Below, one piece after another: positions 10,342 through 55,326 of a DNA stretch of 56,544 bases; position 1 is the stretch's first letter, and each line of letters starts with the position of its first letter. The notes below the pieces were generated by a model, which saw only the letters and a list, made by a program, of their open reading frames with translations, was not told the DNA's origin and searched no databases. Origin of the DNA: a virus (Duplodnaviria; Caudoviricetes); the IMG/VR virus record IMGVR_UViG_3300027799_000001, positions 1-56,544 of that record. One strand, given 5' to 3'. The position numbers were made by a program, and so were the translations under genes.

Positions 10342-10787
10342 ATCAACTCCTCTTCGGTTAAAATACTTCTTTCGCCAATAGCATTACACAATTCATGTAA
10401 CAATTCAGGCCTTAATGAGCTTATCTTGTCTGGTGAGTATACAATTTCTTCACCTGTTTCATCAAAAAAATTACTCCAAGAAATTATACCACACTTACAT
10501 GTAAGGAAAGTTATTCTACCCTGTTTGATTTTAAAAGTATTAAAATTTGATGAATTAATATCTATCTCACCAAGTAATTCATCTTCGAATTCTAACGCTT
10601 GTCTTCCATCTATTCCTTTTAAAATAAAGACTGGCCAAATTTCTTTTGGGAAAACAAACTCACCTTTTTCATTTTTTTCACGATAAGCTTTAGGAACATA
10701 TTTGTAATTATCAACAAGCTTAAAACCAAGAGAACTTTTAAGCTTCTTTTCCATTTCAGGTGTTAAAACAATATTCTTAATTTTCAT
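10329..10787 (-). CDS. Tail assembly chaperone (gpG-like)
   Basis: Between tail tube and tape measure; ends in a slippery heptamer. Confidence 0.8.
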   Translation of the reverse strand: MKIKNIVLTPEMEKKLKSSLGFKLVDNYKYVPKAYREKNEKGEFVFPKEIWPVFILKGIDGRQALEFEDELLGEIDINSSNFNTFKIKQGRITFLTCKCGIISWSNFFDETGEEIVYSPDKISSLRPELLHELCNAIGERSILTEEELMGLE

Positions 10788-10809
10788 AATCCCCCAATCC
10801 CCCCGTTAG

Positions 10810-10848
10810 AAAAAAACCGCGGTTTTTAGGGGGAATATTAAACCGCGG
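10810..10848 (-). terminator. Rho-independent terminator after the tail tube gene
   Basis: CCGCGGTTT / AAACCGCGG stem followed by T7 on the - strand. Confidence 0.75.
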
Positions 10849-10880
10849 CGCAGTGTTGATTACAGGCTCAACACAGCCTG

Positions 10881-11843
10881 TTATGTTTTACTACCGTGTA
10901 AGATTTCTAAGCAATCATCACCAGAACTTTTATTTAATATTAATTTCTTTTGATGAATATAATATCCCTCACGATCACCCACTTGATAAATTTGAGTATA
11001 CTGTGCTGCCGGTGCAGATATAACAATTGGCCCATCTATTTGAGCTACAAAAGCACCAGAAGTATTATTTATAGTACGTGCATAATCGCCTTGTAACGCA
11101 ACGGTTTTAAGCATTGGATCAAGTTCTATTGTTGGCATTCTATTAACCACATGAGCTCCACCATACCCTGTAGAATTGGTAGGGTCTGTGTACAATTCAA
11201 CCTGATTAGCCAAATCTACAGTAAAACTATTTATCTGCTGTCCTTCTCCAAACAATGTCACGCCAACACCTAGTACAACAGATGGGTGATATTCTGTATA
11301 TGTTGGTGTTATAAATTGACCAAAAGTTGTATCTGTTGGTGCAACTGCTATACCTTTAAATTCAAAACTCATTTTAATATAATCACCAACACCTGAGGTG
11401 GCAAGTTTAACACTTGACATACATCCATAACCAGCAAATTTTGTTACTGCTGCATTTGAACCTTCTTCGAGCAATTGAACCACTACAGTAATAGGTACAT
11501 TAGTAAGCTGTGAATCCGGAGTCATTGATACCCCCGTAGATCCATACTGTGTTTTTTCCATTGCACAAGCTTCTAACAGATCAAAATAAGCCGGAGCAGT
11601 TCCAGGTGTACCGGAATAGTACATAGGTACATCAAATGAAAATGATACTGATCTTTTGCCAGCCAATGAAAAAGAAGGTTCCAATTTATTTATTGCCAAG
11701 GGCACATCTTTAACAGGAATATCATACTTAAACGACACATTTTCAATTATGCAACCATTAGTACCTGTTAAAGACGTTTCTTGTGTATATGCTGTACTTT
11801 CTTTTTTCCATAATAAAACTGTTTTTTCTTTTAAAAAAGCCAT
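10881..11843 (-). CDS. Major tail tube protein
   Basis: K.ESTAY start, SG.PGTAP..LL.AC motif; position between terminator protein and chaperone. Confidence 0.8.
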   Translation of the reverse strand: MAFLKEKTVLLWKKESTAYTQETSLTGTNGCIIENVSFKYDIPVKDVPLAINKLEPSFSLAGKRSVSFSFDVPMYYSGTPGTAPAYFDLLEACAMEKTQYGSTGVSMTPDSQLTNVPITVVVQLLEEGSNAAVTKFAGYGCMSSVKLATSGVGDYIKMSFEFKGIAVAPTDTTFGQFITPTYTEYHPSVVLGVGVTLFGEGQQINSFTVDLANQVELYTDPTNSTGYGGAHVVNRMPTIELDPMLKTVALQGDYARTINNTSGAFVAQIDGPIVISAPAAQYTQIYQVGDREGYYIHQKKLILNKSSGDDCLEILHGSKT

Positions 11844-18967: not shown

Positions 18968-19856
18968 TAATTCTATTTAAAACTTGCTTTAATTTCGTAA
19001 GATCATCTTTGTGTTTTTGAACATACTCTTTAATTTCTTTGGCTTTATTTTCTTCCAATTTTGTAGTAAGTTCTGTTATTTCTGCTATGTTTTTTCTACA
19101 ATCTTCAATATACGATTCATCAGTTTTAGATCTATCAATATAGTTAAAAACAATTTTTGGATCTAACGGCAATCGTTTTGGCATATTGAATCGATTTTTA
19201 GCTTCAAATCCTGGTTGTCTCTGTGTATAGACTACATGTTCACCACCCTTAGCTTTCCCTTTACCACTTTTTGAAGTTTTAACCACATTAAGATCATATG
19301 TGGCAAACAGAAGAGCATCTGATTTTTCTTTAAGTAAAGCAGCTAAAACATCTTTGATTTTTATTTCGTATCTTTCGTAACTCTCGCGTAATGGATCGTT
19401 GAATGTCTTTACTTGGCTATGCGCAGTAATCAATATATTGATTGATTTTTTTTCACATATTTCTTCCATCAAACAAAAAACATTATACATTTCAACTTTG
19501 GCTAATTTATAGCCAGAATTATAGCCAAAAGTTTCTATATTTTTTTGATCATTTTCTAAACTGATGTGGGTATACAATAAATTCTCCAACCCATCAATTG
19601 TGTCAATCACAATTGTTTTATAATCAAATTGTTCATTCAAAATAAAATTTAATATTTCTTTGAATTCTTGCCAACTATTAGGAGTTACATTACTAACATC
19701 AGAAAATGATTCTCCAACCATTCCATTTTCACCACATATAAAAAATGGTTTTTCACATCCTGCACCAAACGTTGACTTACCAACACCCTCAACACCGTAA
19801 AGGGTTATTATGTAACCTTTTTTATTAAACCCCTTTTTAATATTAATCTTCATCAA
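18918..19856 (-). CDS. AAA_24 / Sak4-like recombination ATPase
   Basis: YGVEGVGKST Walker A, IVIDT, AH, AKNR motifs; next to the exonuclease. Confidence 0.85.
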   Translation of the reverse strand: MMKINIKKGFNKKGYIITLYGVEGVGKSTFGAGCEKPFFICGENGMVGESFSDVSNVTPNSWQEFKEILNFILNEQFDYKTIVIDTIDGLENLLYTHISLENDQKNIETFGYNSGYKLAKVEMYNVFCLMEEICEKKSINILITAHSQVKTFNDPLRESYERYEIKIKDVLAALLKEKSDALLFATYDLNVVKTSKSGKGKAKGGEHVVYTQRQPGFEAKNRFNMPKRLPLDPKIVFNYIDRSKTDESYIEDCRKNIAEITELTTKLEENKAKEIKEYVQKHKDDLTKLKQVLNRINVILSEQESDSNADVQ

Positions 19857-20244
19857 AACCCCCTAGTTTAGTAAATAAATAACGTCTATATTCATTTCGA
19901 TGTAATTCGCAATATTTTGGATATTTAAATAATAAAGGATTATACATTATTTTATAATAATTATTACATCCTTTAAGTTCACATTTTAATTCCAATGTTT
20001 CAACAACTTTTGAACCTTTTTTAATTTTTTTAACTCCCTGATCATATTTTTTTGGGATTATTATTCTATTTTTGTACAGTTTATGCTTTTCACAATACTT
20101 ACTTACTTTTAATCCAAAGTATTCAACGCCGCAATTATCATAAGAACAGCATTTTTTAACAATTTTTTGTTTGCGGTTTTTGCTGCTTTTATCGTAATTT
20201 GGGTTATTAAACGTCATGAACTGAGGTATTTTTTTTGTTTCCAT
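19843..20244 (-). CDS. Zinc-binding protein with two C-x4-C...YCxxH units
   Basis: CSYDNC...KYCEKH and CELKGC...KYCELH. Confidence 0.6.
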   Translation of the reverse strand: METKKIPQFMTFNNPNYDKSSKNRKQKIVKKCCSYDNCGVEYFGLKVSKYCEKHKLYKNRIIIPKKYDQGVKKIKKGSKVVETLELKCELKGCNNYYKIMYNPLLFKYPKYCELHRNEYRRYLFTKLGGFDED

Positions 20245-20314: not shown

Positions 20315-21418
20315 GTGGTGATGATGGATAAAAATAATCAAAGTATTATTAACAACATTTTGTATGATATAGTATCAAGTGGTGAAAAAAATATAACAAT
20401 TAATGACTTGTCTCAAATAATTAATTTGAAAAATAACAAACAAATGGTATCAACTATAGCTGAAATTATTGAAAATGAAACCGCTAAAAATTCGAGTTTA
20501 GAAGTAATATCGCAAAAAATAAACGATGTCATTTCTAATACAAAATTTGCTGATAGCAATCAAAGCATACAGCACTGTTCATATGATGTTGCCGAAAATT
20601 TGACATTGGCATATAAAAGATCAATTGGAGAAGATATAAACAATGGGAAAATAATTACTGGCCTCAAAGGTTTGGATGATATCATAGATTCAATTGCATC
20701 GACAGATATGGTAGTAATAGCTGCAAGATCAGGACATGGTAAATCGAGTCTGGCATTGTCTATAGCTCTTAATGTCGTTAATGAAAATAATGGTGTGATT
20801 TTTATCACACTAGAAATGTCACGCAAACAATTGATAGATCGTGCCATAAGTGTAGACACGATGATACCGCACAGACAGATTAAAACAGGATTATTAAATC
20901 AAGAAGAAATAAATTGTGTAGCTAAAAGTATTGTAAAATTAAAATCGAAGCCTCTATATATCAGTGATGGTTGTTCTTTGACTATAAACAATATTAGAAA
21001 TCAAATAAAAAAAATTTCAAACAGAACAAAAATTTCATTAATAATTATAGACTATATACAATTGATTAAAACTGAAAAAGATAGAGAAAATAGGCAGGTT
21101 GAAGTATCAAACATTAGCCATGCAATCAAAAAAATGTCTAAAGAATTAGCCATACCTGTTATAGTTTTAGCCCAATTAAATCGAGCTGTAGATTATAGAA
21201 TAGATAAAAGACCAATAGTTGCTGATCTACGCGAATCGGGTGACATTGAAAATGATGCTGATATGATATTTTTTATATACAGAGAAGGAAAATACAATTT
21301 AGATAAACCTGAACTTAAAGATAAAACAGAAATTATAGTGGCTAAAAATAGAAGTGGTCAATGCGGTTCTACAGAAATAGGCTTCGACGAAAATACTACC
21401 AAATTTTTTAATCTTTAA
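20315..21418 (+). CDS. dnaB: DnaB-like replicative helicase (short N-terminus)
   Basis: AARSGHGKS, IIDYIQL, LAQLNR, DLRESGDIENDAD, AKNRSG. Confidence 0.95.
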   Translation: MVMMDKNNQSIINNILYDIVSSGEKNITINDLSQIINLKNNKQMVSTIAEIIENETAKNSSLEVISQKINDVISNTKFADSNQSIQHCSYDVAENLTLAYKRSIGEDINNGKIITGLKGLDDIIDSIASTDMVVIAARSGHGKSSLALSIALNVVNENNGVIFITLEMSRKQLIDRAISVDTMIPHRQIKTGLLNQEEINCVAKSIVKLKSKPLYISDGCSLTINNIRNQIKKISNRTKISLIIIDYIQLIKTEKDRENRQVEVSNISHAIKKMSKELAIPVIVLAQLNRAVDYRIDKRPIVADLRESGDIENDADMIFFIYREGKYNLDKPELKDKTEIIVAKNRSGQCGSTEIGFDENTTKFFNL

Positions 21419-21745
21419 CAAAAACAAAAATAAAATTTAATATTTGAACACACGTTTAAAAACATGTTCTTATTTAAGCGCTTAAATAAAATTATAGTTA
21501 AATTGGAAATGTTTTTTTATTCTTATTGTTTTTTTTGTTTTTTTTCTTTTTTATCTTCTATAAATATTTAACCTTTAAAAACTTAACGCATAATAATTTA
21601 ATCTAAAAACTAACTGTATAAGATAATCTATCTTATTGTACTGACTAGTAATTTTTTCTTTTCTATTAGCATGTTTTAGTATTGATTCTTATGCAATAGG
21701 ATAAAGAGTAGATTGTAAATGTAAGATATTTATACAAGATAATTT

Positions 21746-22183
21746 CAACCCCGCACTTTGAAAGTGCTACAAAGCGCTAAGGAAGCCCCCCCCCTATCCC
21801 CCCCCATGAAAATTGACTACTGTCAATATCATGGTGTGGATAGCATGCCCCCCTCGGGTTAAGGTTCCCCGAGTACCACATGGAATCCCAACGTTTTATT
21901 GATCTATCAAATCGTGCATCCTACCGTTGTTTTATTGATCACGCACCACCAGTTTTGTGCGTATGTTGTGCTATGTATTCGCTTGGGTTGAGGTACTGCT
22001 TCCCCAATTTCTCCCAGCTTATGGATAATGCAATACAAACATAACACAACTTATTTGGATTGCATGTTGCATTGTGAGCTTTTGTAGCCTATATAATCAA
22101 TATTATCATGACTTTACGCTTTTACCACTTCATCCCTACTCATCCATATAGGACGGCGCGGGGTTCGCCTGCAACTGGCGCAC
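21746..22183 (-). ncRNA. Putative ~440-nt structured non-coding RNA / origin element
   Basis: ORF-free GC-rich island; closing stem 22156-22165 with 21747-21756; several hairpins; G-U pairs favour the - strand; TATAAT 7 nt upstream of G22183. Confidence 0.6.
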
Positions 22184-22287
22184 TATATATATTATAGACA
22201 TTTTTTTATTTGATGTATCACTTTTTTGATTCTTTTTTTAAAAAAAATATTATATTTAACATATACTTTGTCAATTGGATGGATAGT

Positions 22288-22812
22288 ATGAATAAAAAAA
22301 GATGTGTGTCTAATCCTAAAGGTGGTTTTAATAAAACATACAAATTGTCTGTTATTTATACTGATGGGTCGTGCCTTGGTAATGGCAAGTCTAATAATGT
22401 AGGAGGGTGGGCTTACATTATTAATAATAATGGTGTGAGGAATTGTAATAGTGGACGTGTTTTCAACACAACTAATCAGGTTATGGAGCTTACGGCTTGT
22501 TTAGAAGCGTTAAAGTCAGTTCCACCTGACACAACTAATGTAGATATTTATTCAGATAGCGCATACTTGATTAATTGCATGCTGTATAAGTGGTACGAAA
22601 AATGGATTCGCAAAAATTGGATAAATTCTACAGGTGGAAAAGTTGTTAATAGAGATTTGTGGGAACAGATATTACAATATAATAATATTTATATTGTTAG
22701 GTATAAAAAGGTTCACGCTCATTCTGGTGATTTGAATAACGAACGTGTAGATAAAATGGCTAGGGATGCAGCTAAAGGAACAAACTTAGAATACAAGGTG
22801 TGTATATTTTGA
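22288..22812 (+). CDS. rnhA: Ribonuclease HI
   Basis: YTDGSC.GN, TTNQ.MEL.A, IYSDSAY, N.DLW, KV.AHSG...NE.VD..A; start codon uncertain (22210-22288). Confidence 0.95.
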   Translation: MNKKRCVSNPKGGFNKTYKLSVIYTDGSCLGNGKSNNVGGWAYIINNNGVRNCNSGRVFNTTNQVMELTACLEALKSVPPDTTNVDIYSDSAYLINCMLYKWYEKWIRKNWINSTGGKVVNRDLWEQILQYNNIYIVRYKKVHAHSGDLNNERVDKMARDAAKGTNLEYKVCIF

Positions 22813-27178: not shown

Positions 27179-29350
27179 TTGGAAGACAAAAACAAAGATA
27201 TTGAACAAAAAATAGCTAGCACATTAAATTTGGATCGTGATTTTTTTATTACGACTCCATACGGGAAAAATCTGTCTGTAAATGACATTACTGAGAATCC
27301 ATATAATTATCAATATTGGATTTTCTCAATGTGCAAAACTATTTGTCTTAATTGTTTGAAAATTGATTGGAAAATATGCGATAAAAAAAACAAGAATTTG
27401 TTTTTAGATGATCATGAAGTGACGGAATTGTTGGAATGTCCAAATCCATGGCTTTCAGAGACGGCATTTAAAGAGATGATCATATTGGGTTTATTATTAT
27501 CATCTGGTAAGAATTTCGAAGATACAGGCGGACAAGTTTTTATAGTAGGTGAGAAGAAAAAGGGCAAAGGAAATTTTTGTTTTTTCGACAAGGGTGAAAT
27601 ACCACAAAATTTGTTTTGTTATTGGGAAAAACGTCAACAATATTCTTTCGGAGCTAAATTAGATAAAAATGGAAGTTTTTCACACTGGTGTCTCGAATGG
27701 AATGATAATTGTAAAACAAAAATAGATTTTGAGCCCGGACAAGTTATTAGAGTGAATTTTTTAAATCCGAATAACTGGTACAGAGGCTTGTCATGGTTTA
27801 CTCCAGCCGGTAACCAAACATATCAAGATATTTTGAGTGATGTGTACAATTCAATGTTTTTTGAAAATGACGGTCGTGTTGCTGGTATTTTGAAATTTAA
27901 AGATGAGATGACCGAAGAGCAGTTAAGGCTATCAATGCAACGTTGGAATCAGAATTATGGATCTGCGGGTAGAAATGGCAAAATAGCTGCTCTAGACAAT
28001 GGTGCTGAATATCAACAGTTTTCTCCTACCCACTCTGATATGCAATTTAAAGATTTGAAAGATTTGACGCATTCAAATCTTCTTGCATGTTTTGGATTGA
28101 ATAAAATAGCTTTGGGAAATTATGAGAGTATAAATTTTGCTACTATTAAAGAGGGACGCAGAATGTTATACCATGACACTTATATACCTTTGGTTAAAAT
28201 AATTTTATCTGCATTTAACAATCAATGGATAAGGCACATTGGTAACGGTAATTTAAGATTGGTATATGATGTTTCTAATGTTGATGCAATGATGCCTGAT
28301 TATTCTAATTTACCCGGCCCTTATCAAGCTTTAATAAATTCAGGTGTTCCTCCAGTTGTTGCGGCTAGAAAATTAGGTGTATCATTCACAGAGTCGGAAA
28401 TTGAAGAATACCCTTGGTTAAATGAAAGAGTAAATAATAGTTCATTTGTTTTAAACAAACCGAATAAAGAAAATATAAAAAATGAAGATGAAACTGATGA
28501 TGAAAAAGATGGAAAAAAAAATACCGATAAAATAATTAAAAAAACATTAGATCAAAAAATAGAAAAAAATAGGGTTTATAATAAAAAATTTCAAGATGAA
28601 GAGATGCGACCTATTGAAGAAAGTTTTTTGAATAGATTGTATAAAACGAATGAATGGTTGAATGATCGTTTAGTGGATAAAGTAAATAATTATTACACCA
28701 ATTTAAATTCTAAGAATATTAGTAGTATTGTTATTAAAAGTGACAAAATTGATCCAGAAGAATTCATGCCAAATTTTAAACTTTATAAAATAAAGTTTTT
28801 GGATGATTATAAAAAAATGGTAAAAGATGTTACCGATAAATTGTCAGTAACCTTACCAAATGAAACTAATGGTATTGTTGTTTGGGATAGCAATCCGGAA
28901 AAATGGAAGAGGTACGTTGCTCTTAGAAAAAAACAAATAGAAGAAATACATACTACTACATTTGAAAAGTATAGAGAAAAAATAGGCGAAGCATTAAAAG
29001 AATCGATGGAAAACGATTTGATTTTATCAGAACAAAGGGAATTGATATTAGAGGCGATTTCTGAAACTGGTGAAATCAGAAAAAATCAATCAGTAACAAT
29101 AGCTAGAACAGAAGTTGGTACAGTCACATCTCAAGAAAGGTACGATAGTTATGTAGAAAATGATGTTGAAATGGTTGAATGGTCTGCCTATCATGATGAC
29201 GCTACACGTGACTCACATATAGCTTGTGAACAAGAAGGTCCAATTAGATTGGGAGATAGATTTTCTAATGGTTTGCTACATCCTGGTGATCCTAATGGTG
29301 ATCCTAGTGAAGTAATAAATTGTCGTTGCACATTATTAGTTACACAATAA
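27179..29350 (+). CDS. Portal protein fused to a Mu gpF-like minor head domain
   Basis: HK97-type portal motifs (P.P..S, RGLS, N.GK...L..G); C-terminal IARTE...W....D..TR.SH...PGDP...INCRC. Confidence 0.9.
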   Translation: MEDKNKDIEQKIASTLNLDRDFFITTPYGKNLSVNDITENPYNYQYWIFSMCKTICLNCLKIDWKICDKKNKNLFLDDHEVTELLECPNPWLSETAFKEMIILGLLLSSGKNFEDTGGQVFIVGEKKKGKGNFCFFDKGEIPQNLFCYWEKRQQYSFGAKLDKNGSFSHWCLEWNDNCKTKIDFEPGQVIRVNFLNPNNWYRGLSWFTPAGNQTYQDILSDVYNSMFFENDGRVAGILKFKDEMTEEQLRLSMQRWNQNYGSAGRNGKIAALDNGAEYQQFSPTHSDMQFKDLKDLTHSNLLACFGLNKIALGNYESINFATIKEGRRMLYHDTYIPLVKIILSAFNNQWIRHIGNGNLRLVYDVSNVDAMMPDYSNLPGPYQALINSGVPPVVAARKLGVSFTESEIEEYPWLNERVNNSSFVLNKPNKENIKNEDETDDEKDGKKNTDKIIKKTLDQKIEKNRVYNKKFQDEEMRPIEESFLNRLYKTNEWLNDRLVDKVNNYYTNLNSKNISSIVIKSDKIDPEEFMPNFKLYKIKFLDDYKKMVKDVTDKLSVTLPNETNGIVVWDSNPEKWKRYVALRKKQIEEIHTTTFEKYREKIGEALKESMENDLILSEQRELILEAISETGEIRKNQSVTIARTEVGTVTSQERYDSYVENDVEMVEWSAYHDDATRDSHIACEQEGPIRLGDRFSNGLLHPGDPNGDPSEVINCRCTLLVTQ

Positions 29351-39323: not shown

Positions 39324-40445
39324 ATGAACGTTAAATATTTGAAATCAAAAATAGATATTATCGAAGTGGTTGAAAAATATACAGTTATATATAAGGTAGG
39401 GAAAGATTGCAGATGCAAATGCATTTTACACAAAGATTCAAATCCATCTATGCATATCTATGTTGATAATACTTGGTATTGCTTTGGATGTCGTCGCGGT
39501 GGAGATGTTATATCATTTGTTCAACTTGTTGAAAATATTAATTTTACAGAGGCGTGTAAACTACTTGCCCAACAATACAATATTAATATAAGTATATCTG
39601 GTGGAGACTATAAACCATATAATATAGTGTATCCATTGGCTTTAGACGGTACTTGGCATGATTATCTTAGGCGTAGACGTATATCTGATACTACAATCAA
39701 TCAGTGGGGGCTTGGCTATGACTGCAATACATCATCAATATGCATACCAATACGTAATAGTTTCGGTGCAACAATAGCCCACGCCTATAGGTATATTGGA
39801 CATAATAATACAATATCCAAGTACCGTAATGCCAATGGAAATGTGTACAATAAGAGTAGTACACTGTTTGGGTTGGATAAAGCTAAAAAATATATAGACA
39901 CATCTAATTATTGCATTATTGTAGAGGGATATTTTGATTGTATTTCTCTTCATCAAGCCGGAATACGTAATGTTGTAGCTATTTGTGGAGTAGCCTTGAC
40001 TCAACAAATGATAGACATTATTAAAAGACATACCAAGAATGTTGTATTTTGTTATGATAATGATACGGCAGGAATAAATGCAACAGTTGATAGTATAACT
40101 AAGTCTATAGGGCAAGATTTTTGTATTAAAGTTTTAGAGGTGTGTGATTATCATGATATAGACGAGCTTGTTGTTGGGAGTACACCAGAACAATTACATA
40201 AATTTTTGTGTAGTAAAATACATTGGATAGATTTTATGTACAAAAATATGCCACAGAATATTATACAATGTTTATGCAGTGTCGGCGATATATCATATAT
40301 GATTGGATGTGTTGATCGATTGTCAGAAATATCTAATGTGTCTGCAGATATAATTTTTTGTAAAATGATTAAAAAAATAAATAAAACATCACGTTTATAT
40401 AGTGATTTTGTTAAATTTATTAAAAATGGAGGTATCAATGGATAA
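39324..40445 (+). CDS. dnaG: DNA primase (DnaG, CHC2 zinc finger plus TOPRIM)
   Basis: C.LH.D..PS, CFGC..GGD, KY.N, IVEGYFD, YD.D.AG. Confidence 0.95.
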   Translation: MNVKYLKSKIDIIEVVEKYTVIYKVGKDCRCKCILHKDSNPSMHIYVDNTWYCFGCRRGGDVISFVQLVENINFTEACKLLAQQYNINISISGGDYKPYNIVYPLALDGTWHDYLRRRRISDTTINQWGLGYDCNTSSICIPIRNSFGATIAHAYRYIGHNNTISKYRNANGNVYNKSSTLFGLDKAKKYIDTSNYCIIVEGYFDCISLHQAGIRNVVAICGVALTQQMIDIIKRHTKNVVFCYDNDTAGINATVDSITKSIGQDFCIKVLEVCDYHDIDELVVGSTPEQLHKFLCSKIHWIDFMYKNMPQNIIQCLCSVGDISYMIGCVDRLSEISNVSADIIFCKMIKKINKTSRLYSDFVKFIKNGGING

Positions 40446-40712: not shown

Positions 40713-42392
40713 ATGGATAGCCAATTAATTGATAATCTTGTTAATGGTTATCATAGAGCCAAATACATAAATTTTATCAAGTATTGTTGGTTGTATACTA
40801 ATCGACCATTTTTGATAGGGTACCACACAAAAATAATATCGGATGAGATCGATTTGGCGCTTAAGAGATACAAAGACGGTCAATCATCTTATTTGATGTT
40901 TTTGTGTTGTTTTAGGTCGGGGAAAACCGAGTTGACATCTCGGTTTTTGCCTGTCAGATTTTTGGCTCAAAATCCAGATGATGAGGTTTTAATAGTATCT
41001 CACAGACAAGATAAAGCTAATCAATTTAGTCGGTATAGCCAAATGATTGCATCTTCTAAAAATTTTAAAAAATTGTATCCAGATTTAGCCATTGGAAAAG
41101 CTTCTGTGCAGGAATGGGGTTTTGATAATCATTTGGGGTCTTGCCAGTATATAGGTATAGATACTGGATCGGCAGGTATGGGGGCTAATCTATTAATACT
41201 TGATGACTATTATGGTGGTATAGAAGATGCGCTATCACAAACTATAGAAGAAAAAAGATGGAACGCATTTAGTTCAAATTTGCTGACCAGGCTTGGCAGT
41301 CCGCATATAGTAGCGATATGTGTTACACCCTGGACTACGTCTGATATAGTTGCACGAATACAACAAGAAATGATTAAAACCAAAGACTATCCGCAATATA
41401 AAATTTTACGATTTCCCGGAATAGATGAGTCATATCCGTCAGGTTATCTTTTCCCTGAAAAATACCCTGAGTCATGGTATATTGCTCAAAAAGCTACCCT
41501 TAGTAAATATGAGTTTCACTCTTTGATGCAGGCACAACCATTACCACGTGACGCGGGTGTATTCAAAACTTCTAAAATTAAATACTATGATGATATAAGT
41601 GATGTTATTGATGACCCAGAGTCAATTATATGGATTAGGGCATGGGATATAGCTGCATCAGTTAAAGAATTAATTAAGAGTGATCCAGACTGGACTGTCG
41701 GCGTCAAAATGTTTGTCAAAAAATATGAAAGCAATGTTGATGGTTACTATGTACACACGGTGTATATAGATGATATAATAAGGGTTCGTTTTGAGGCACC
41801 TGAGCGCGATAGGCTTATACTGAGTACGGCTTTGGCAGAAAGTAATACCATAGTAGGGGTAGAGTCATTTGGGGTTCAGAAGGACGTCTACAGCAACGTA
41901 CGCAAGCTTCTACAGGGCAAACGTATAATACGCAAGTTCCCTGATGGAAAAGATCCTCGTGGAGATTTGTTATCAAGATCGTTTGCTTTACAAACTGCGT
42001 GTGAAAGCGGTAACCTTTATGTCAAACGTGCCGATTGGAACGAGGCTCTAATCAATGAGTTGGCGTGTTTTCCAGGCTCAAAACATGATGATATTATAGC
42101 TGCAATGGTCGTAGGATTTTACGTTGGACAACGTAGCGGAACCGGTGTAGGTGTGATGGTTGACACACACAGTATTGAGGTAGAGCGTGAAAATAAATGG
42201 GGCGTGATATTAGGGCAGATAATCGATGGATATGAGCCTACGATAAGTCAGACGGATTATATACGCTTTGTAAGGTATAGGCTTGTTGAGCATGCTGGTA
42301 AGGAGGAGAATAGTGCGGTGGTAGAGTTGATGAATTCTATCATCAAAAAGTTAGATATAGAATACGATTATGAATCGTTTAAAGTGGTGTAA
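40713..42392 (+). CDS. terL: Terminase large subunit
   Basis: RSGKT Walker A, LILDD Walker B, AWD.A, D.T.G, FP...HDD nuclease motifs. Confidence 0.93.
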   Translation: MDSQLIDNLVNGYHRAKYINFIKYCWLYTNRPFLIGYHTKIISDEIDLALKRYKDGQSSYLMFLCCFRSGKTELTSRFLPVRFLAQNPDDEVLIVSHRQDKANQFSRYSQMIASSKNFKKLYPDLAIGKASVQEWGFDNHLGSCQYIGIDTGSAGMGANLLILDDYYGGIEDALSQTIEEKRWNAFSSNLLTRLGSPHIVAICVTPWTTSDIVARIQQEMIKTKDYPQYKILRFPGIDESYPSGYLFPEKYPESWYIAQKATLSKYEFHSLMQAQPLPRDAGVFKTSKIKYYDDISDVIDDPESIIWIRAWDIAASVKELIKSDPDWTVGVKMFVKKYESNVDGYYVHTVYIDDIIRVRFEAPERDRLILSTALAESNTIVGVESFGVQKDVYSNVRKLLQGKRIIRKFPDGKDPRGDLLSRSFALQTACESGNLYVKRADWNEALINELACFPGSKHDDIIAAMVVGFYVGQRSGTGVGVMVDTHSIEVERENKWGVILGQIIDGYEPTISQTDYIRFVRYRLVEHAGKEENSAVVELMNSIIKKLDIEYDYESFKVV

Positions 42393-45383: not shown

Positions 45384-46166
45384 ATGTCGAGAAAATTCAG
45401 AGTGAACGAGAAAGTAAGGAAGTCACCGCCTGAATTCACAAAAGAAAAAAAATGTATAGGTAAAGTTTTAGAATTTGACGACAATGCCTTTTGCAATGGT
45501 TGTTATAAGATTAGGCCCAAAGGTTCTTTTGATTTACTCATGTTTCATGGGTCTTGGCTTGATGATGTGCATGAGGACACTCCTGTAGACGATTTACGTA
45601 CTATTTTAGAGAAAGCAGAAAAGACAAATATAGAAAAATTAGATGAAACACCTATAATGTTTCAGAAATCTTGGCTTGATGAGGTGTATGAGGACACCCT
45701 TGTAGACGATTTACACACTATTTTGGGGAAAACAGAAGAACCAAAGTCAGACTATCACAAAGCAAAATATGACAAAGGAAAATATCAACCAAGATACATT
45801 CCGGTGATAGCTGAAGAGTTGGCGGCCAGGGTGTTTGAGTTTGGCGGTTGTAAAAACTATGGTTTCTTCTCTTTCCAAGATGTACCGGAAGCTATGGACA
45901 GATACATGGATGCACTGAAGCGTCATTATGATGTTCTCATGCTGCATAAACAACAAAATGGAAATTATGATATCAATGAGTCAGAATCACAAATACCAGA
46001 GATAGCTTTTATTCTTTCAAACGCTATGATGCTGGTTCATGTATATGTTAGGGAGGCGGCAAAAGCCAAAGGTATGACAATGAGAGAGTATGTTGATAAG
46101 GAAATTAATCCGGGCATGTTTACTGCTTTTGATGCGGTAAAAGAAAAATATAATACGAAAAGTTGA
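45384..46166 (+). CDS. Fusion: small N-terminal domain plus DUF5664-like dATP/dGTP diphosphohydrolase
   Basis: KYD.GK....IP, A.V.EFG..KNYG, RY.DA..RH, ES; N-terminus paralogous to 55858-56109; internal ~39-aa duplication. Confidence 0.75.
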   Translation: MSRKFRVNEKVRKSPPEFTKEKKCIGKVLEFDDNAFCNGCYKIRPKGSFDLLMFHGSWLDDVHEDTPVDDLRTILEKAEKTNIEKLDETPIMFQKSWLDEVYEDTLVDDLHTILGKTEEPKSDYHKAKYDKGKYQPRYIPVIAEELAARVFEFGGCKNYGFFSFQDVPEAMDRYMDALKRHYDVLMLHKQQNGNYDINESESQIPEIAFILSNAMMLVHVYVREAAKAKGMTMREYVDKEINPGMFTAFDAVKEKYNTKS

Positions 46167-47930: not shown

Positions 47931-48737
47931 ATGTGCTGCTTTTTCGGTTTTGTCTCGTATGACAATGTTTTCTATTACATCAACGCAGAAGATAGGAAAA
48001 AGAAGTTACTTAAAAATCCTGACAGTCATACTCAGATCTGTTCCTTTTTCAATCTGCCTGAAGACAGATGCAATAAATACGAGTTTTCTGCAGATTTTGG
48101 CATTACAGCAGATGCCTTAGAATATAAAGATGACGACCCTGAAGGATTTATAAAAAAAATGTTGCCAAAATTAGTAGAAATGGCTATTGCGACAATTAAA
48201 ACTTATGGAGAAGGCATTGAGTTTTTATCAGACGAGGAACGCACTCAAGAAATATGTTTGGCTTTGGTTAAAAAGAATTGTGATGCAATAAGACACTTAA
48301 CTGATAAGCAGCGCACACCTGAGGTTTGTATCGCTGCAGTTAAGAAAGACGGCAACGCCATTGTCTATCTAACGAATAAACAGCGAACGCCAATGGTTTG
48401 CCTGGCCGCTGTTCAAAAAAATGGTGATGCTATTAGGTTCCTAACTGCTAAACAACGCACACCAAAAGTATGTAAGGAAGCAGTGAAGAAAGCTGGTTGG
48501 ACTATTACTTATTTAACAAATGAACAAAAGACTCTAGGACTTTGTATGTTATCTGTGGAAAAGAGTGGTACTAATATCGAGTATGTTCCTAATGAGCTAA
48601 GGACACCAAAGCTTTGCTTGACGGCAGTGTTAAAAGACAAGGCGGCTTTTAAATTTCTCAATTATATTCAAAAAGAAGAAGTGGCTATGGCTCTGCTAAA
48701 GCGAGTAAAAGCATGCAAAAAATCCGGAACAAAGTAA
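47931..48737 (+). CDS. DUF4116-like repeat protein, copy C (7 modules)
   Basis: MCCFFGFVSYD N-domain plus RTPxVCxAAVxxxGxAIxxLT repeats. Confidence 0.85.
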   Translation: MCCFFGFVSYDNVFYYINAEDRKKKLLKNPDSHTQICSFFNLPEDRCNKYEFSADFGITADALEYKDDDPEGFIKKMLPKLVEMAIATIKTYGEGIEFLSDEERTQEICLALVKKNCDAIRHLTDKQRTPEVCIAAVKKDGNAIVYLTNKQRTPMVCLAAVQKNGDAIRFLTAKQRTPKVCKEAVKKAGWTITYLTNEQKTLGLCMLSVEKSGTNIEYVPNELRTPKLCLTAVLKDKAAFKFLNYIQKEEVAMALLKRVKACKKSGTK

Positions 48738-48761: not shown

Positions 48762-49712
48762 ATGGGTGGCTTTTTTAGTTTTGTATCGCACAAAAATACG
48801 TTTTATTATATTGACGTAAATGGGCGTAAAAACAAGATACTTGAAGATCCTGACAACCATACACAGATATGCGCATATTTCAAACTTCCTGAGAAGCAAT
48901 GTAATAAGTATGAGTATGTAAAATATGAGTTTTCTTCAGAAGATCCTAACGAGGAAGACGTTAGAGCTGAAAAGATAGTGTACGAAGGCGACGATCCATT
49001 TGATTTTATGGAAAAAATACGTCCTATTTTTACAGAATTGTGCATAACAACAGTTATTAATTATGGTAATGGAATCGAGTTCTTAAAGGGCTATCAACGG
49101 ACACCTGAAATTTGTTTAGCTTCTATTAAAAATAAGCCAGAGTCTATAGAATATTTGACTGATGAACAAAAAACACCACAGGTTTGTTTGGCAGCAGCGA
49201 AGAAAAATTGGGAAACTCTTGAGCACATGAATAACAAGCAGAGAACACCTGAAGTTTGTTTAGCGGCTCTTTTGCAAAATATCGAAGCAGCCAGAATATT
49301 GACGGCTGAACAGATAACTCCAGAGATTTTACTTGCTACTGCTCAAAAAAATGGAGAAATAATAAAAATTTTATGGTCAAGTCACTTCAGAACACCTGAA
49401 GTTTGTCTTGCTGCTATTAAACAAAATTGGATGCTTATTAGTAGTTTGGCTGACGACCAAATAACATTGGATATTTGTATTGAAGCGGTATCACAAAACA
49501 AAGAAGCTTATGCTTATGTGCCTTTATCTATGAGAAGAAGACTTCATTCAAAGGTATCAAAAAAATTAAAGAAATTTTTTGAACAAAAAGATGAAGAAAG
49601 AATACGTGTAATAGAAGCTCGTGAAAAAGAAGATAAACGCAGGTTAGCTGCTCGGGAAAAGAAAAATGAAATTAAGAAGGCTCTTCGGTTTTTGTTAAAG
49701 CAAATAGATTAG
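48762..49712 (+). CDS. DUF4116-like repeat protein, copy D (7 modules plus charged coiled-coil tail)
   Basis: MGGFFSFVS N-domain; K/R/E-rich C-terminus. Confidence 0.85.
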   Translation: MGGFFSFVSHKNTFYYIDVNGRKNKILEDPDNHTQICAYFKLPEKQCNKYEYVKYEFSSEDPNEEDVRAEKIVYEGDDPFDFMEKIRPIFTELCITTVINYGNGIEFLKGYQRTPEICLASIKNKPESIEYLTDEQKTPQVCLAAAKKNWETLEHMNNKQRTPEVCLAALLQNIEAARILTAEQITPEILLATAQKNGEIIKILWSSHFRTPEVCLAAIKQNWMLISSLADDQITLDICIEAVSQNKEAYAYVPLSMRRRLHSKVSKKLKKFFEQKDEERIRVIEAREKEDKRRLAAREKKNEIKKALRFLLKQID

Positions 49713-51229: not shown

Positions 51230-52093
51230 ATGTGTAACTTTTTTAGCTTTGTTTCGTATGACGGTCATTTCTATTACATCAACGCTGAAGACCGCAAAAA
51301 AGAAATACTTGAGAATCCTGACAGTCACACTCAGATATGTTCATTCTTCAATCTGCCTGAAGATAGGTGTAATAAGTACGAGTATACGAAAGAGAAAGGT
51401 TTGGTAATAGATTCCAAAGTTTATGTAGGTGATGATGTTGAAGGATTTATGGACAAAATATATTCAAAATTAGTAGAATTGGCTATAATAACAGCAGAAA
51501 ATTATGGGGATGGAATGGAATTCATTCCGGATAAACTTCGTACATCAGAGCTTTGTTTGGCAGTGGTTAAGAAAAATGGAAATGCGATCAAATATTTATC
51601 TTTAGAGCAGAGAACTCCAAATGTTTGTTTAGCGGCGGTGAAGCAGGATGGTTATGCTGTTTGTTGGCTAACAGAGGATCAAAGAACGCCTCAAGTTTGT
51701 TTGGCAGCAGTAATGCAAAATGGTAGTGCTATTGGGTATTTAACTTTCAAACAAAAAACTCCTGAAATTTGTTTGGCTGCTGTTAAGCAAAATGGTGGCG
51801 CTATCATGGTTTTATCTGAGGAGCATGCCACACCAGAAGTTTGTAGGGCTGCTATTAACAACAATCCTTATTCCGTGGCAAGCATACCCGACAAATTGCG
51901 TACTCAAGATCTTTGTTTGATGGCTGTTAAAAAAGATGGGACTGTTGTTAAATATTTATTGGATGAAGAGAGAACGCTGGATATTTGTTTAGCGGCAGTG
52001 AGGCAAAATAAAAATACTCGTAAATATTTGACTGAAGATCAGAAAAAAGCAGTAGATTTAGCATTAGAAAATAAAAATAAAACAAAAGGATAG
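51230..52093 (+). CDS. DUF4116-like repeat protein, copy E (8 modules)
   Basis: MCNFFSFVSYD N-domain; C-cap DQKKAVDLAL. Confidence 0.88.
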   Translation: MCNFFSFVSYDGHFYYINAEDRKKEILENPDSHTQICSFFNLPEDRCNKYEYTKEKGLVIDSKVYVGDDVEGFMDKIYSKLVELAIITAENYGDGMEFIPDKLRTSELCLAVVKKNGNAIKYLSLEQRTPNVCLAAVKQDGYAVCWLTEDQRTPQVCLAAVMQNGSAIGYLTFKQKTPEICLAAVKQNGGAIMVLSEEHATPEVCRAAINNNPYSVASIPDKLRTQDLCLMAVKKDGTVVKYLLDEERTLDICLAAVRQNKNTRKYLTEDQKKAVDLALENKNKTKG

Positions 52094-52727: not shown

Positions 52728-53240
52728 TCAAACAATATAGTTTGGTATGTTGAATTTGTTTAAAATCTCTACCTTTTCAGCACTTTGTTTTTTTCGCATT
52801 GTTTTATACCATTCGCAAGGTATTTTACACAAAACAAAACCGCCTTTCTTGCGACTATATCTTTTCTGTTGTGGGATACATGAGCAATCGCTTAGTCCGA
52901 ATAGAAGTATTTCCAGTCTATCACCTGTATTCGGGTGTTTTAAATTGGCAAGATAATAATTGAAACTCTTTTTTACATGTGTGTTTTGTTTGATATAATG
53001 GCAAAAATAAAATCTAACGCTTCTGAGCCATGTTATCAATACTCTTTTTGTTATATCCTTATAAATTATCAAACCCTTGTGCACAACGCTGTATCTCCTA
53101 CAACCGCAATACACACTGCCTGACAAAACTATTTTGTACAAATGCTCTTTGCATCTATGATGGACTTTATCGATCCTATTTATCCCGCTATCCATTCCAG
53201 TACGTAATTCATACCACATATGGGATTTTATACACCTCAA
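52728..53240 (-). CDS. Hypothetical basic protein
   Basis: 170-aa ORF co-oriented with DUF1064; start uncertain. Confidence 0.45.
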   Translation of the reverse strand: MRCIKSHMWYELRTGMDSGINRIDKVHHRCKEHLYKIVLSGSVYCGCRRYSVVHKGLIIYKDITKRVLITWLRSVRFYFCHYIKQNTHVKKSFNYYLANLKHPNTGDRLEILLFGLSDCSCIPQQKRYSRKKGGFVLCKIPCEWYKTMRKKQSAEKVEILNKFNIPNYIV

Positions 53241-53589
53241 TAATATTTATTTTATGTACAGCATACATTAGTTTCTTTTTGAGCTTATACTCAGGTGTAA
53301 GTAACTTTTGGGATGCTTTAACATCATATACTATACTCTGTCCGTCATTATATGTTACAACAAAATCAGTTACATAATCACATATGCGTACATTATTTAC
53401 TTCGATTGGATATCTTTTGTGTACTTCAATCGATTCTATATTACCTCTATTTTTAAGCATTTCAAGAAATAAATAAAATTTATATTCCTTTTTTGAGTCG
53501 AATGTATATCCACCATATACAATACGCTTATGCATGTATCTACCAGTTTTTGACTTGAATTTTTTGTAACAAACTGGATAACTCGGCAT
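53209..53589 (-). CDS. DUF1064-family nuclease
   Basis: G..FDSKKE, Y..DF, DVK, TPEY.LKKKL; GGAG RBS before ATG at 53589. Confidence 0.85.
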   Translation of the reverse strand: MPSYPVCYKKFKSKTGRYMHKRIVYGGYTFDSKKEYKFYLFLEMLKNRGNIESIEVHKRYPIEVNNVRICDYVTDFVVTYNDGQSIVYDVKASQKLLTPEYKLKKKLMYAVHKINIIEVYKIPYVV

Positions 53590-54474: not shown

Positions 54475-55326
54475 TTAATTTTTACTTTCCAATGCTAAAT
54501 CTACTGCTTTTTTCTGATCTTGAGTCAAAAAATTATAAGCATTTTTATTCTGCAGTACCGCGGCCAAGCAAATCTGAGGTTCTCTTTGCTCATCAGTTAA
54601 ATAATAAATAGCAGTACCATTTTGCTTAACCGCAGCAAAACATATCTCCGGAGTTTTTTGCCTATAAGATAAATGTCTAACTGCTCTACCGTTTTGCATT
54701 ACTGCTGCTAAACAAATATCTGGAGTTTTATCTTTATCAAGTAAAAAATTAATAACATCTCCATGTTTTTTAACAGCCATCAAACAAAGATCTTGAGTAC
54801 GCAATTTGTCATGCATATAGGCTACAGAACAAGGGTTATTGTTAATAGCAGCAATACAAACTTCCAGTGTTTGCTGTTTTTCAGATAAATATTCTATAGC
54901 CTTACCATTTTGGTTCACTGCTGCCAAGCAAATCTGAGATGTCTTATGTTCATCATTTAACCAACGAACAGCATGTCCTTTTTTACTAACTACTGATAAA
55001 CATAATTCATGTGTACGAAGTTTATCTGGAATGAATTCAATTCCATTCCCATAATTTTCTGCTGTTATTATAGCCAATTCTACTAATTTTAAATATATTT
55101 TGTCCATAAATCCTTCAACATCATCACCTACATAAACTTTAGAATCTATTACCAAACCTTTCTCTTTCGTATACTCATACTTATTACATCTATCTTCAGG
55201 AAGCTTGAAAAAAGCACAAATTTGAGTGTGACTATCTGGATCCTCAAGTATTTTGTTTTTTCTATCTTCGGCATTGATGTAATAGAATGTATTATCATAA
55301 GATACAAAGCTAAAAAAATGACACAT
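54475..55326 (-). CDS. DUF4116-like repeat protein, copy G (8 modules)
   Basis: MCHFFSFVSYD N-domain; C-cap DQKKAVDLALESKN. Confidence 0.88.
   Translation of the reverse strand: MCHFFSFVSYDNTFYYINAEDRKNKILEDPDSHTQICAFFKLPEDRCNKYEYTKEKGLVIDSKVYVGDDVEGFMDKIYLKLVELAIITAENYGNGIEFIPDKLRTHELCLSVVSKKGHAVRWLNDEHKTSQICLAAVNQNGKAIEYLSEKQQTLEVCIAAINNNPCSVAYMHDKLRTQDLCLMAVKKHGDVINFLLDKDKTPDICLAAVMQNGRAVRHLSYRQKTPEICFAAVKQNGTAIYYLTDEQREPQICLAAVLQNKNAYNFLTQDQKKAVDLALESKN

Follow-up and report, generated by a model that had tools for sequence, protein, structure and literature searches.

A double G-run box next to the helicase gene of a tailed phage as a candidate replication origin

The replication origin of phage lambda sits inside gene O, where iterons are followed by an AT-rich region, and among the large RNAs carried by phages GOLLD and ROOL are represented in Rfam. 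In human mitochondria, as reported in PMC3488243 and PMC6317783, termination and the formation of primers are stimulated by a G-quadruplex at CSB II, and origin-specific initiation is directed by RNase H1. The herpesvirus packaging signal pac1 is presented, in section 6 of PMC13595911, as a T-rich core flanked by G runs with quadruplex potential. The present work concerns a locus with features of each of these systems, namely the gap of about 860 nucleotides (nt) between the dnaB and RNase H genes of a tailed phage (Duplodnaviria; Caudoviricetes; IMG/VR record IMGVR_UViG_3300027799_000001). This record is a complete virus genome of 56,544 bp with 31% GC and a terminal repeat of 91 bp, and its full length is referred to below as the window. 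The gap holds a GC-rich island, which a first-pass annotation had regarded as a structured RNA of about 440 nt, and the 3' quarter of this island contains a double G-run box, G8-ATA-G9, that is bordered by AT-rich DNA. It is proposed here, with a confidence that we would call evenly balanced, that this 3' quarter and the adjoining AT-rich DNA form the replication origin of the phage, i.e., a cis-acting DNA site. By its context, the origin region would be placed at 21419-21875, a placement that we hold to be as open to doubt as to acceptance.

The locus resembles lambda-type origins in the combination of the box, the AT-rich stretch and the adjacency to dnaB. A similar likeness is seen in six loci of other genomes (L153, L154, L147, L146, L152 and L038), in which the box lies inside an open reading frame (ORF) adjacent to dnaB, and in L153 it extends to tandem repeats and an AT-rich run beside the box. 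The window differs from lambda-type origins in that its site is not covered by an ORF and in that an initiator was not recognised, and we know of no G7-ACTATA-G7 box, a form in which the element recurs elsewhere, that has been described for such origins. The features in common with ColE1 RNA II and CSB II are a promoter-like site, a foldable leader, G runs on the non-template strand, AT-rich DNA and an RNase H gene; this comparison concerns the arrangement of features only, no sequence similarity being claimed, and because both DnaB and DnaG are encoded by the phage itself, a transcript primer is not obviously needed. Like pac1 as portrayed in PMC13595911, the box consists of a G run, a short T/A-rich core and a second G run and is capable of forming a quadruplex, and two phage families in which it stands beside terminase genes are alike in this respect too. 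The window differs, since its box adjoins dnaB and is separated from the terminase gene by 19 kb, and the resemblance is architectural only. Finally, the island is similar to GOLLD and ROOL in being large, GC-rich, ORF-free, foldable and phage-borne, and it differs from them in that Rfam gave nothing apart from three chance-level matches and in that homologues were not found in the searches reported below.

The box, its AT-rich flank and a possible mechanism

The box of the window agrees with a general form of two runs of at least seven G separated by a TATA-like spacer of 3-6 nt, and it is the sole G-quadruplex motif (G3+N1-7, four times) on both strands of the whole genome, in which G or C runs of seven or more are confined to the island (the coordinates of this and other features are collected in Table 1). 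A distance of 368 nt separates it from the stop codon of dnaB, which places it within about 1 kb of the replicative helicase gene. The composition of its two flanks is unequal: GC content in successive 100-nt bins on the 3' side is 0.33, 0.22, 0.13 and 0.21, compared with 0.45-0.46 in the two bins just 5', and the AT-rich stretch on the 3' side ranks among the two parts of the genome that are poorest in GC. The repeats near the box are limited to the 9-nt repeat of T tracts, the pair of 12-mers and inverted repeats. The origin reading is drawn from the box itself, from the repeat-bearing AT-rich DNA 3' of it, from the adjacency of the helicase gene and from the recurrence of the box beside helicase genes elsewhere.

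If this region indeed serves as an origin, the AT-rich stretch would be expected to open first, and the G-rich strand of the box would then fold into a G-quadruplex, or the box would act as a GC clamp bounding the bubble, so that the region would be held open for the loading of the phage DnaB. A sigma-70-like promoter may drive transcription of the 380 nt of GC-rich sequence upstream, in the direction of the box, and the resulting transcript might activate or prime the origin and be trimmed by the adjacent RNase H. The features of the sequence, the recurrence of the box and its linkage to helicase genes in other genomes are observed directly, whereas origin function, the formation of a quadruplex and any part played by a transcript are inferred for this phage, and the GC-rich sequence upstream of the box is possibly either a transcript that runs into the origin or an independent RNA.

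With respect to the chemistry of the G runs, the N-terminal domain of dATP/dGTP diphosphohydrolase (PF18909) is encoded in the window at 45384-46166 (3.4e-12), and the same domain is found in L145 (1207-1662, 6.2e-20), less than 400 nt from the G-run box of that locus. The presence of this domain may be a sign that the DNA contains modified purines, and such purines would affect the question of whether G runs can form a quadruplex.

Table 1. Coordinates of the features of the dnaB-RNase H gap and of associated genes in the window (p, pair probability; z, z score against shuffled sequences)
Feature	Position	Strand	Remarks
Double G-run box, G8-ATA-G9	21786-21805	-	
AT-rich stretch	21419-21745		16-19% GC; adjoins the 3' side of the box (G strand); proposed unwinding region
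9-nt T-tract repeat	21512-21557		about 5 copies
Perfect palindrome	21470-21489		20 bp
Inverted arms	21551-21583 and 21710-21742		33 nt
GC-rich ORF-free island	21746-22183	-	candidate transcript of the first-pass annotation; starts at G22183, ends with the 3' strand of the closing helix
TATAAT hexamer	22191-22196	-	consensus match only; poor -35
Second promoter-like site, TTGACA-16-TAATAT	22274-22247	-	consensus scan; 57 nt upstream of TATAAT
GATCAATAAAAC, two exact copies	21929-21940, 21893-21904	-	36 nt apart; least well-defined part of the fold
CGCC/GGCG helix	22180-22177 with 22169-22166	-	p 0.99
Closing helix, AACCCCGCGC/GUGCGGGGUU	22165-22156 with 21756-21747	-	10 bp; p 0.98
12-bp helix	22050-22039 with 21976-21965	-	p 0.98
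CUCGGG/CCCGAG helix	21873-21868 with 21858-21853	-	p 0.98
CCAUGA/UCAUGG and AUUGAC/GUCAAU helices	21834-21804	-	p 0.98-0.99
UACGCAC/GUGCGUG helix		-	p 0.88
3' hairpin domain	21875-21775	-	-41.8 kcal/mol; z -4.60; 0/200 shuffles
DnaB-type replicative helicase gene	20315-21418	+	PF03796, 4e-82
RNase H gene	22210-22812	+	PF00075, 2e-32; divergent from the island
DnaG primase gene	39324-40445		
Large terminase gene	40713-42392		

Recurrence of the box and its linkage to helicase genes

Bacterial and archaeal assemblies (one genome per species) from many phyla contain the exact 20-mer G7-ACTATA-G7 in 37 loci, whereas by our own estimate a random 20-mer would be expected about once in the 596 Gb concerned. 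The hosts of these loci include Planctomycetota, Chloroflexota, Clostridia, Prevotellaceae, Alphaproteobacteria, Gemmatimonadota and a Haloarcula. In IMG/VR the pattern CATG-G7+-N0-3-ATA-G7+ was present in 28 contigs belonging to three unrelated sequence families, and relaxing the pattern to any pair of G7 runs with 3-8 nt between them gave at least 111 stretches, from which 80 loci with 82 sites are listed. Among these listed matches the spacer is exactly ACTATA in 7 of the 82 sites, other spacers being ATTATA, ATATA, TATA, ATGATA and, once, ATA (L091), and the flanks of the listed loci are unrelated to each other and range in GC content from 0.40 to 0.67. The ATA spacer, as present in the window, is also found in metagenome contigs. 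CATG was considered as a part of the box and rejected, as it precedes the first G run in none of the 82 listed sites; these sites were obtained without bias, and the CATG of the first scan therefore came from the pattern that had been chosen. A single double-G7 site per record was observed in all five of the other virus records checked, and in both L038 and L060 another double-G7 site, with a different spacer, is located close by.

The neighbourhood of these boxes was surveyed with Pfam and with a DnaB profile built from 120 homologues of the phage's DnaB. The 37 loci contain seven DnaB genes, every one of them at a distance of 197-618 nt from the box, with no others in the remainder of the loci. 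In a Pfam tally of the 101 ORFs within 1 kb of the box DnaB_C ranks first (7), with HTH_36 (2), Prim-Pol (1) and Phage_rep_org_N (1) also represented, and it is not among the 25 families listed for the 123 ORFs at 2 kb or more from the box, which include terminases and portals instead. The presence of the latter genes indicates that many of the loci are phage or prophage DNA and that the linkage to helicases is local to the box. Further instances, all in viral loci, are a DnaB_C gene 350 nt from the box in L038, an AAA_25 helicase at 170 nt in L101, an IstB/DnaA-ATPase-like protein at 210 nt in L094, a primase-helicase at 1.8 kb in L060, and in L111 a match to the DnaB profile about 290 nt from a G7-CCGC-G7 site. 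The box-adjacent helicases share 23-37% identity with each other (one pair 76%), and since the box is identical it is far better conserved than its neighbours.

The six loci in which the box falls within an ORF next to dnaB comprise five of the 37 (L153, L154, L147, L146 and L152) and one viral locus (L038), and translation of the box within these ORFs gives PPIVPP, PPYSPPP or GGDYRGG, in a stretch of low complexity. Box-containing ORFs of other genomes are 234-454 amino acids (aa) long, and that of L147 has an HTH_36 domain (8.5e-9). In L153 the box (1030-1049) is directly adjoined by a 12-nt tandem repeat of 6.8 copies (886-967) together with an AT-rich run (979-1027), and repeat arrays beside the box are discernible by eye in L145, L148, L149, L157, L162, L165 and L091. 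The box varies in its orientation relative to the overlying gene, the sense strand being C-rich in four of the six loci (L153, L154, L147, L146) and G-rich in the other two (L152, L038). Averaged over 53 sites, the first 100 nt on the 3' side of the G strand show a dip in GC content of 5.8 points, with no dip on the 5' side, and because this AT-side polarity is more regular than the sense of the genes it is better in keeping with an element that acts at the level of DNA than with one that acts at the level of RNA.

The position of the box in certain viral genomes could point to another function at the level of DNA, namely a signal for DNA packaging or a genome terminus that would be a phage counterpart of pac1. 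Viral family A and L081 have the box just downstream of a large-terminase gene of the T7 type, and there it is followed by about 550 nt of non-coding DNA with a promoter-like TTGACA before the next genes, while in viral family B it adjoins a small-terminase-like gene, and terminases also occur at 2 kb or more from the box in at least three genome loci (Terminase_6N in 3, Terminase_3 in 2 and GpA in 1; these families may overlap). Such a role seems very improbable for the box of the window, as the large terminase gene of this phage is 19 kb away, the box adjoins dnaB both here and in at least seven other loci, and the contig ends, with their 91-bp terminal repeat, do not coincide with it.

The proposal that the region is an origin has also to be weighed against a number of observations that count against it. 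The spacer is ATA in the window and most commonly ACTATA elsewhere, and the window has no counterpart of the C run that, as assessed by eye, stands ahead of the box in about 14 of the 37 genome loci. DnaB is not found near the box in 30 of the 37 genome loci, four of the five motif-bearing virus records have no DnaB_C at all, the box adjoins terminase genes in two viral families, and the neighbouring ORFs of the viral loci were chosen for scanning in a non-blind manner. No initiator protein was recognised among the proteins of the phage, and neither DnaA boxes (28 versus 23 expected) nor the TTATCTTNTATAA repeat (5 versus 2.8 expected) is enriched. The cumulative G-C minimum of the genome is located at 20200, and since it coincides with a switch in gene orientation it does not constitute independent evidence. 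Moreover, an origin by itself explains neither the 380 nt upstream of the box, with 40-50% GC in a genome of 31% GC, nor the pairing of the ends of the island (P 0.018).

If the box does mark origins, its 20-nt signature would make it possible to locate origins in uncultured phages and in prophages, where they are almost never annotated. It would then be a signature conserved letter for letter beside helicases of 23-37% identity, and it would raise the question whether a G-quadruplex or a GC clamp next to an unwinding region aids the loading of DnaB-type helicases. What appeared to be a new class of RNA thereby becomes a testable model of an origin, in which the GC-rich leader is possibly a primer transcript or an activator transcript. 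Full-text literature searches for the box, for its variants and for origin contexts with seven G retrieved no paper, with most subscription journals being outside their reach, and on account of this limited reach the claim that the box has so far escaped description is a weak one.

Several further properties of the boxes in other genomes were noted. In L038 (10828-10918) G7-ACTATA-G8 and, on the opposite strand, G7-CCTTTT-G7 are inverted around about 50 nt of A-rich sequence, and both sites fall inside the ORF just upstream of the DnaB gene. In L144, L155, L169 and about 11 more of the loci L144-L180 a run of 5-8 C stands 2-5 nt before the first G run, and such a run, for example GTCCCCCCCCTT followed by G7, could pair with either of the G runs. 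The spacer and the G's that follow it resemble T7-class promoters, and Prochlorococcus phage P-SCSP2 has GGACACTATAGGAGA, without G runs, at the corresponding position; the possibility that the box is itself a promoter of this class was set aside because it occurs in single copy per genome. In T7-like cyanopodovirus contigs (L009:3135-3154, with L032:1750-1790) the box is situated 20 nt past the stop codon of the large-terminase gene, at what is likely the genome end.

The GC-rich island and its predicted fold

The first-pass annotation described the island as a GC-rich segment without ORFs in an AT-rich genome, and this description holds: the longest stop-free frame inside it has 66 codons, every reading frame across the gap between dnaB and the RNase H gene is interrupted many times, and the 150-nt windows with the highest GC content of the genome are located in it (0.51 versus 0.31 overall). 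Its transcription was proposed to start at G22183, 7 nt after a TATAAT on the minus strand (22196-22191). The hexamer is there, but it is not accompanied by an acceptable -35 element and was not listed by the promoter scan, and an intrinsic terminator was not predicted for the island by a terminator scan. The palindrome GCACTTT-C-AAAGTGC, said to compete with the closing stem, is likewise present (21767-21753 on the minus strand).

All of the helices named in the original description occur in the minimum-energy fold of 22190-21740 on the minus strand, for which -144.9 kcal/mol was computed. Its 3' hairpin domain is an imperfect inverted repeat made up of CUAUCC/GGAUAG, CCAUGA/UCAUGG and AUUGAC/GUCAAU, plus the CUCGGG/CCCGAG hairpin, and the G runs of the box occupy internal loops of this domain. 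The segment with the two copies of GATCAATAAAAC has pair probabilities of 0.19-0.67, and this sequence has no further exact copy in the window. When compared with shuffled sequences, the candidate has a z score of -3.65 on the minus strand, where none of 100 shuffles was as stable, and of -2.24 on the plus strand. Stems of at least 8 bp number 42 as compared with a shuffle mean of 26.9 (P 0.006), a helix closing the ends with the observed strength arises in 1.8% of 500 shuffles, and a 12-bp helix arises in 45% of the candidate's shuffles.

Controls taken from the same genome, i.e., 87 windows of 451 nt from across its length and from both strands with 16 shuffles each, have a mean z score of -0.63 (standard deviation 1.48), and four of them fall below -4.1. 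The candidate folds better than its own shuffled sequences, yet four of the 87 same-genome windows score lower than the candidate, which consequently ranks in the top 6% or so and is no outlier. For this reason the thermodynamic case for a structured RNA is suggestive, no more. The control windows that surpass the candidate are 1585-2035 on the minus strand (-6.2), 19575-20025 on the plus strand (-4.5), 10580-11030 on the plus strand (-4.2) and 52985-53435 on the minus strand (-4.1).

The statement that the island corresponds to no described class of RNA is in agreement with database searches. Rfam 15 gave no hits at gathering thresholds over the whole window, relaxation to E<=10 for 21400-22400 yielded only three chance-level matches (two snoRNA models and one CRISPR repeat model, E 1.8-9.2), and ARAGORN reported no tRNA or tmRNA genes. 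As regards homologues, the island had no blastn match among 50,697 phage records (INPHARED), three exact IMG/VR scans with sub-sequences of it returned no matches, and neither blastn nor nhmmer found a homologue in 30 retrieved loci, and the 16 contigs recovered in a metagenome scan have the G-run box in common with the island and nothing beyond.

These data bear directly on the view that the island encodes an independent structured RNA, about 440 nt long and of a new class, which would be transcribed from the TATAAT, closed by the 10-bp helix and active in trans on a host or phage target. This view is consistent with the GC-rich composition of the island within an AT-rich, ORF-free gap, with the z scores of the whole candidate and of its 3' domain (z -4.6), with the closing helix (P 0.018) and the excess of long stems, with the better folding of the minus strand than of the plus strand when each is set against its own shuffles, and with about 10 G-U pairs of the fold that by our count are possible only on the minus strand. 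Nevertheless, we consider such an RNA unlikely in view of the four lower-scoring control windows, the missing Rfam family, the lack of an island homologue in INPHARED, in the IMG/VR scans, in the 30 loci and in the 16 metagenome contigs, a TATAAT without a -35 element and without a terminator found downstream, and a sole conserved part, the box, that behaves elsewhere like a DNA element. Of the original inference of a folded RNA, the lack of a known class and the preference for the minus strand stand, whereas the fold, judged against the genome's own windows, is not exceptional, and the interpretation as a new RNA is neither refuted nor established.

The same transcript could instead have a function in cis, as a pre-primer RNA of the ColE1 RNA II or mitochondrial CSB II type, in which the G8-AUA-G9 segment would form a quadruplex or a persistent R-loop. 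This possibility is decidedly doubtful, as is its continuation, in which the neighbouring RNase H would cut the transcript to yield a primer for synthesis into the AT-rich stretch. The order of elements speaks for it, since a promoter-like site is followed by 380 nt of foldable RNA, by G runs on the non-template strand and by AT-rich DNA, with a divergent RNase H gene immediately upstream and dnaB immediately downstream, and it is also in line with the terminator not found and the initiator protein not recognised, as well as with the human mitochondrial precedent of CSB II and RNase H1 (PMC3488243, PMC6317783). However, the box is read in either sense elsewhere, which makes it unfit for a general rule based on G-rich RNA; transcription that ended at the box would prevent the formation of the closing helix, whose second strand lies 30-60 nt further on; and RNase H is not among the 25 families listed, of 47, for the ORFs within 1 kb of the box. 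A broader proposal, that a pre-primer RNA of about 400 nt together with G7-(AC)TATA-G7 is an undescribed origin determinant of phages and prophages in many bacterial and archaeal phyla, appears just as doubtful to us.

The fold statistics, being unexceptional for the genome, would also agree with the absence of any function, in which case the GC island would have arisen by chance or be a non-coding remnant of recent acquisition, such as that of a decayed initiator gene, and the presence of the box would be coincidental; the length of the gap, about 860 nt, is close to that of the box-containing ORFs of other genomes. This is very unlikely in our opinion. Not only are all frames broken many times, but a decaying remnant would be expected to drift toward 31% GC, and boxes of this type recur far above chance. 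A decayed initiator gene in particular was rejected, given that tblastn with six box-containing ORFs against the gap produced nothing better than E 0.2.

A scan of IMG/VR for the pair of GATCAATAAAAC 12-mers matched only two fragments of jumbo phages, and these were rejected as homologues of the island because there ATAAAACGTTAGR is a signal upstream of genes. The fragments (L002 and L003, 14-16% complete) contain 22 and 25 copies of ATAAAACGTTAGR on one strand, which stand from a few to about 25 nt before gene starts and resemble a phage-specific promoter or leader motif, and at L003:1700-2110 nine copies in both orientations are clustered next to two tRNA genes. The island has one ATAAAACGTTAGR-like copy at 21887-21901, with 12 of 13 bases matching.

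The phage genome and its other genes

The gene set is that of a tailed phage and includes an HK97-type capsid protein, a tail tube protein and a portal fused to a Mu-F domain. The RNase H ORF was called from a TTG at 22210, and its translation makes an ATG at 22279 or 22288 a likelier start. In a collection of 5.8 billion proteins the DnaB of the phage has no relative above 43% identity other than its own 100% entry and its large terminase (TerL) none above 50%, the latter being at most 28% identical to that of any isolate, so that judged by these two sequences the phage is an orphan. Protein-anchored searches of IMG/VR with DnaB and with the portal revealed no related phages. Among public sequencing runs the stretch is listed for one DNA run, which comes from freshwater sediment and may be its source, and for no RNA runs, and the contigs of that DNA run contained no sequence variants of it.

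Two features of the coding sequence were recorded in addition. The portal domain (PF04860) and the Mu F-like head-morphogenesis domain (PF04233) are joined in a single ORF of 723 aa (27179-29350). Furthermore, the genome encodes four DUF4116 repeat proteins (47931-48737, 48762-49712, 51230-52093 and 54475-55326) with up to seven stretches of the domain and E values down to 2.4e-38, an expansion that is unusual for a phage of 56 kb.

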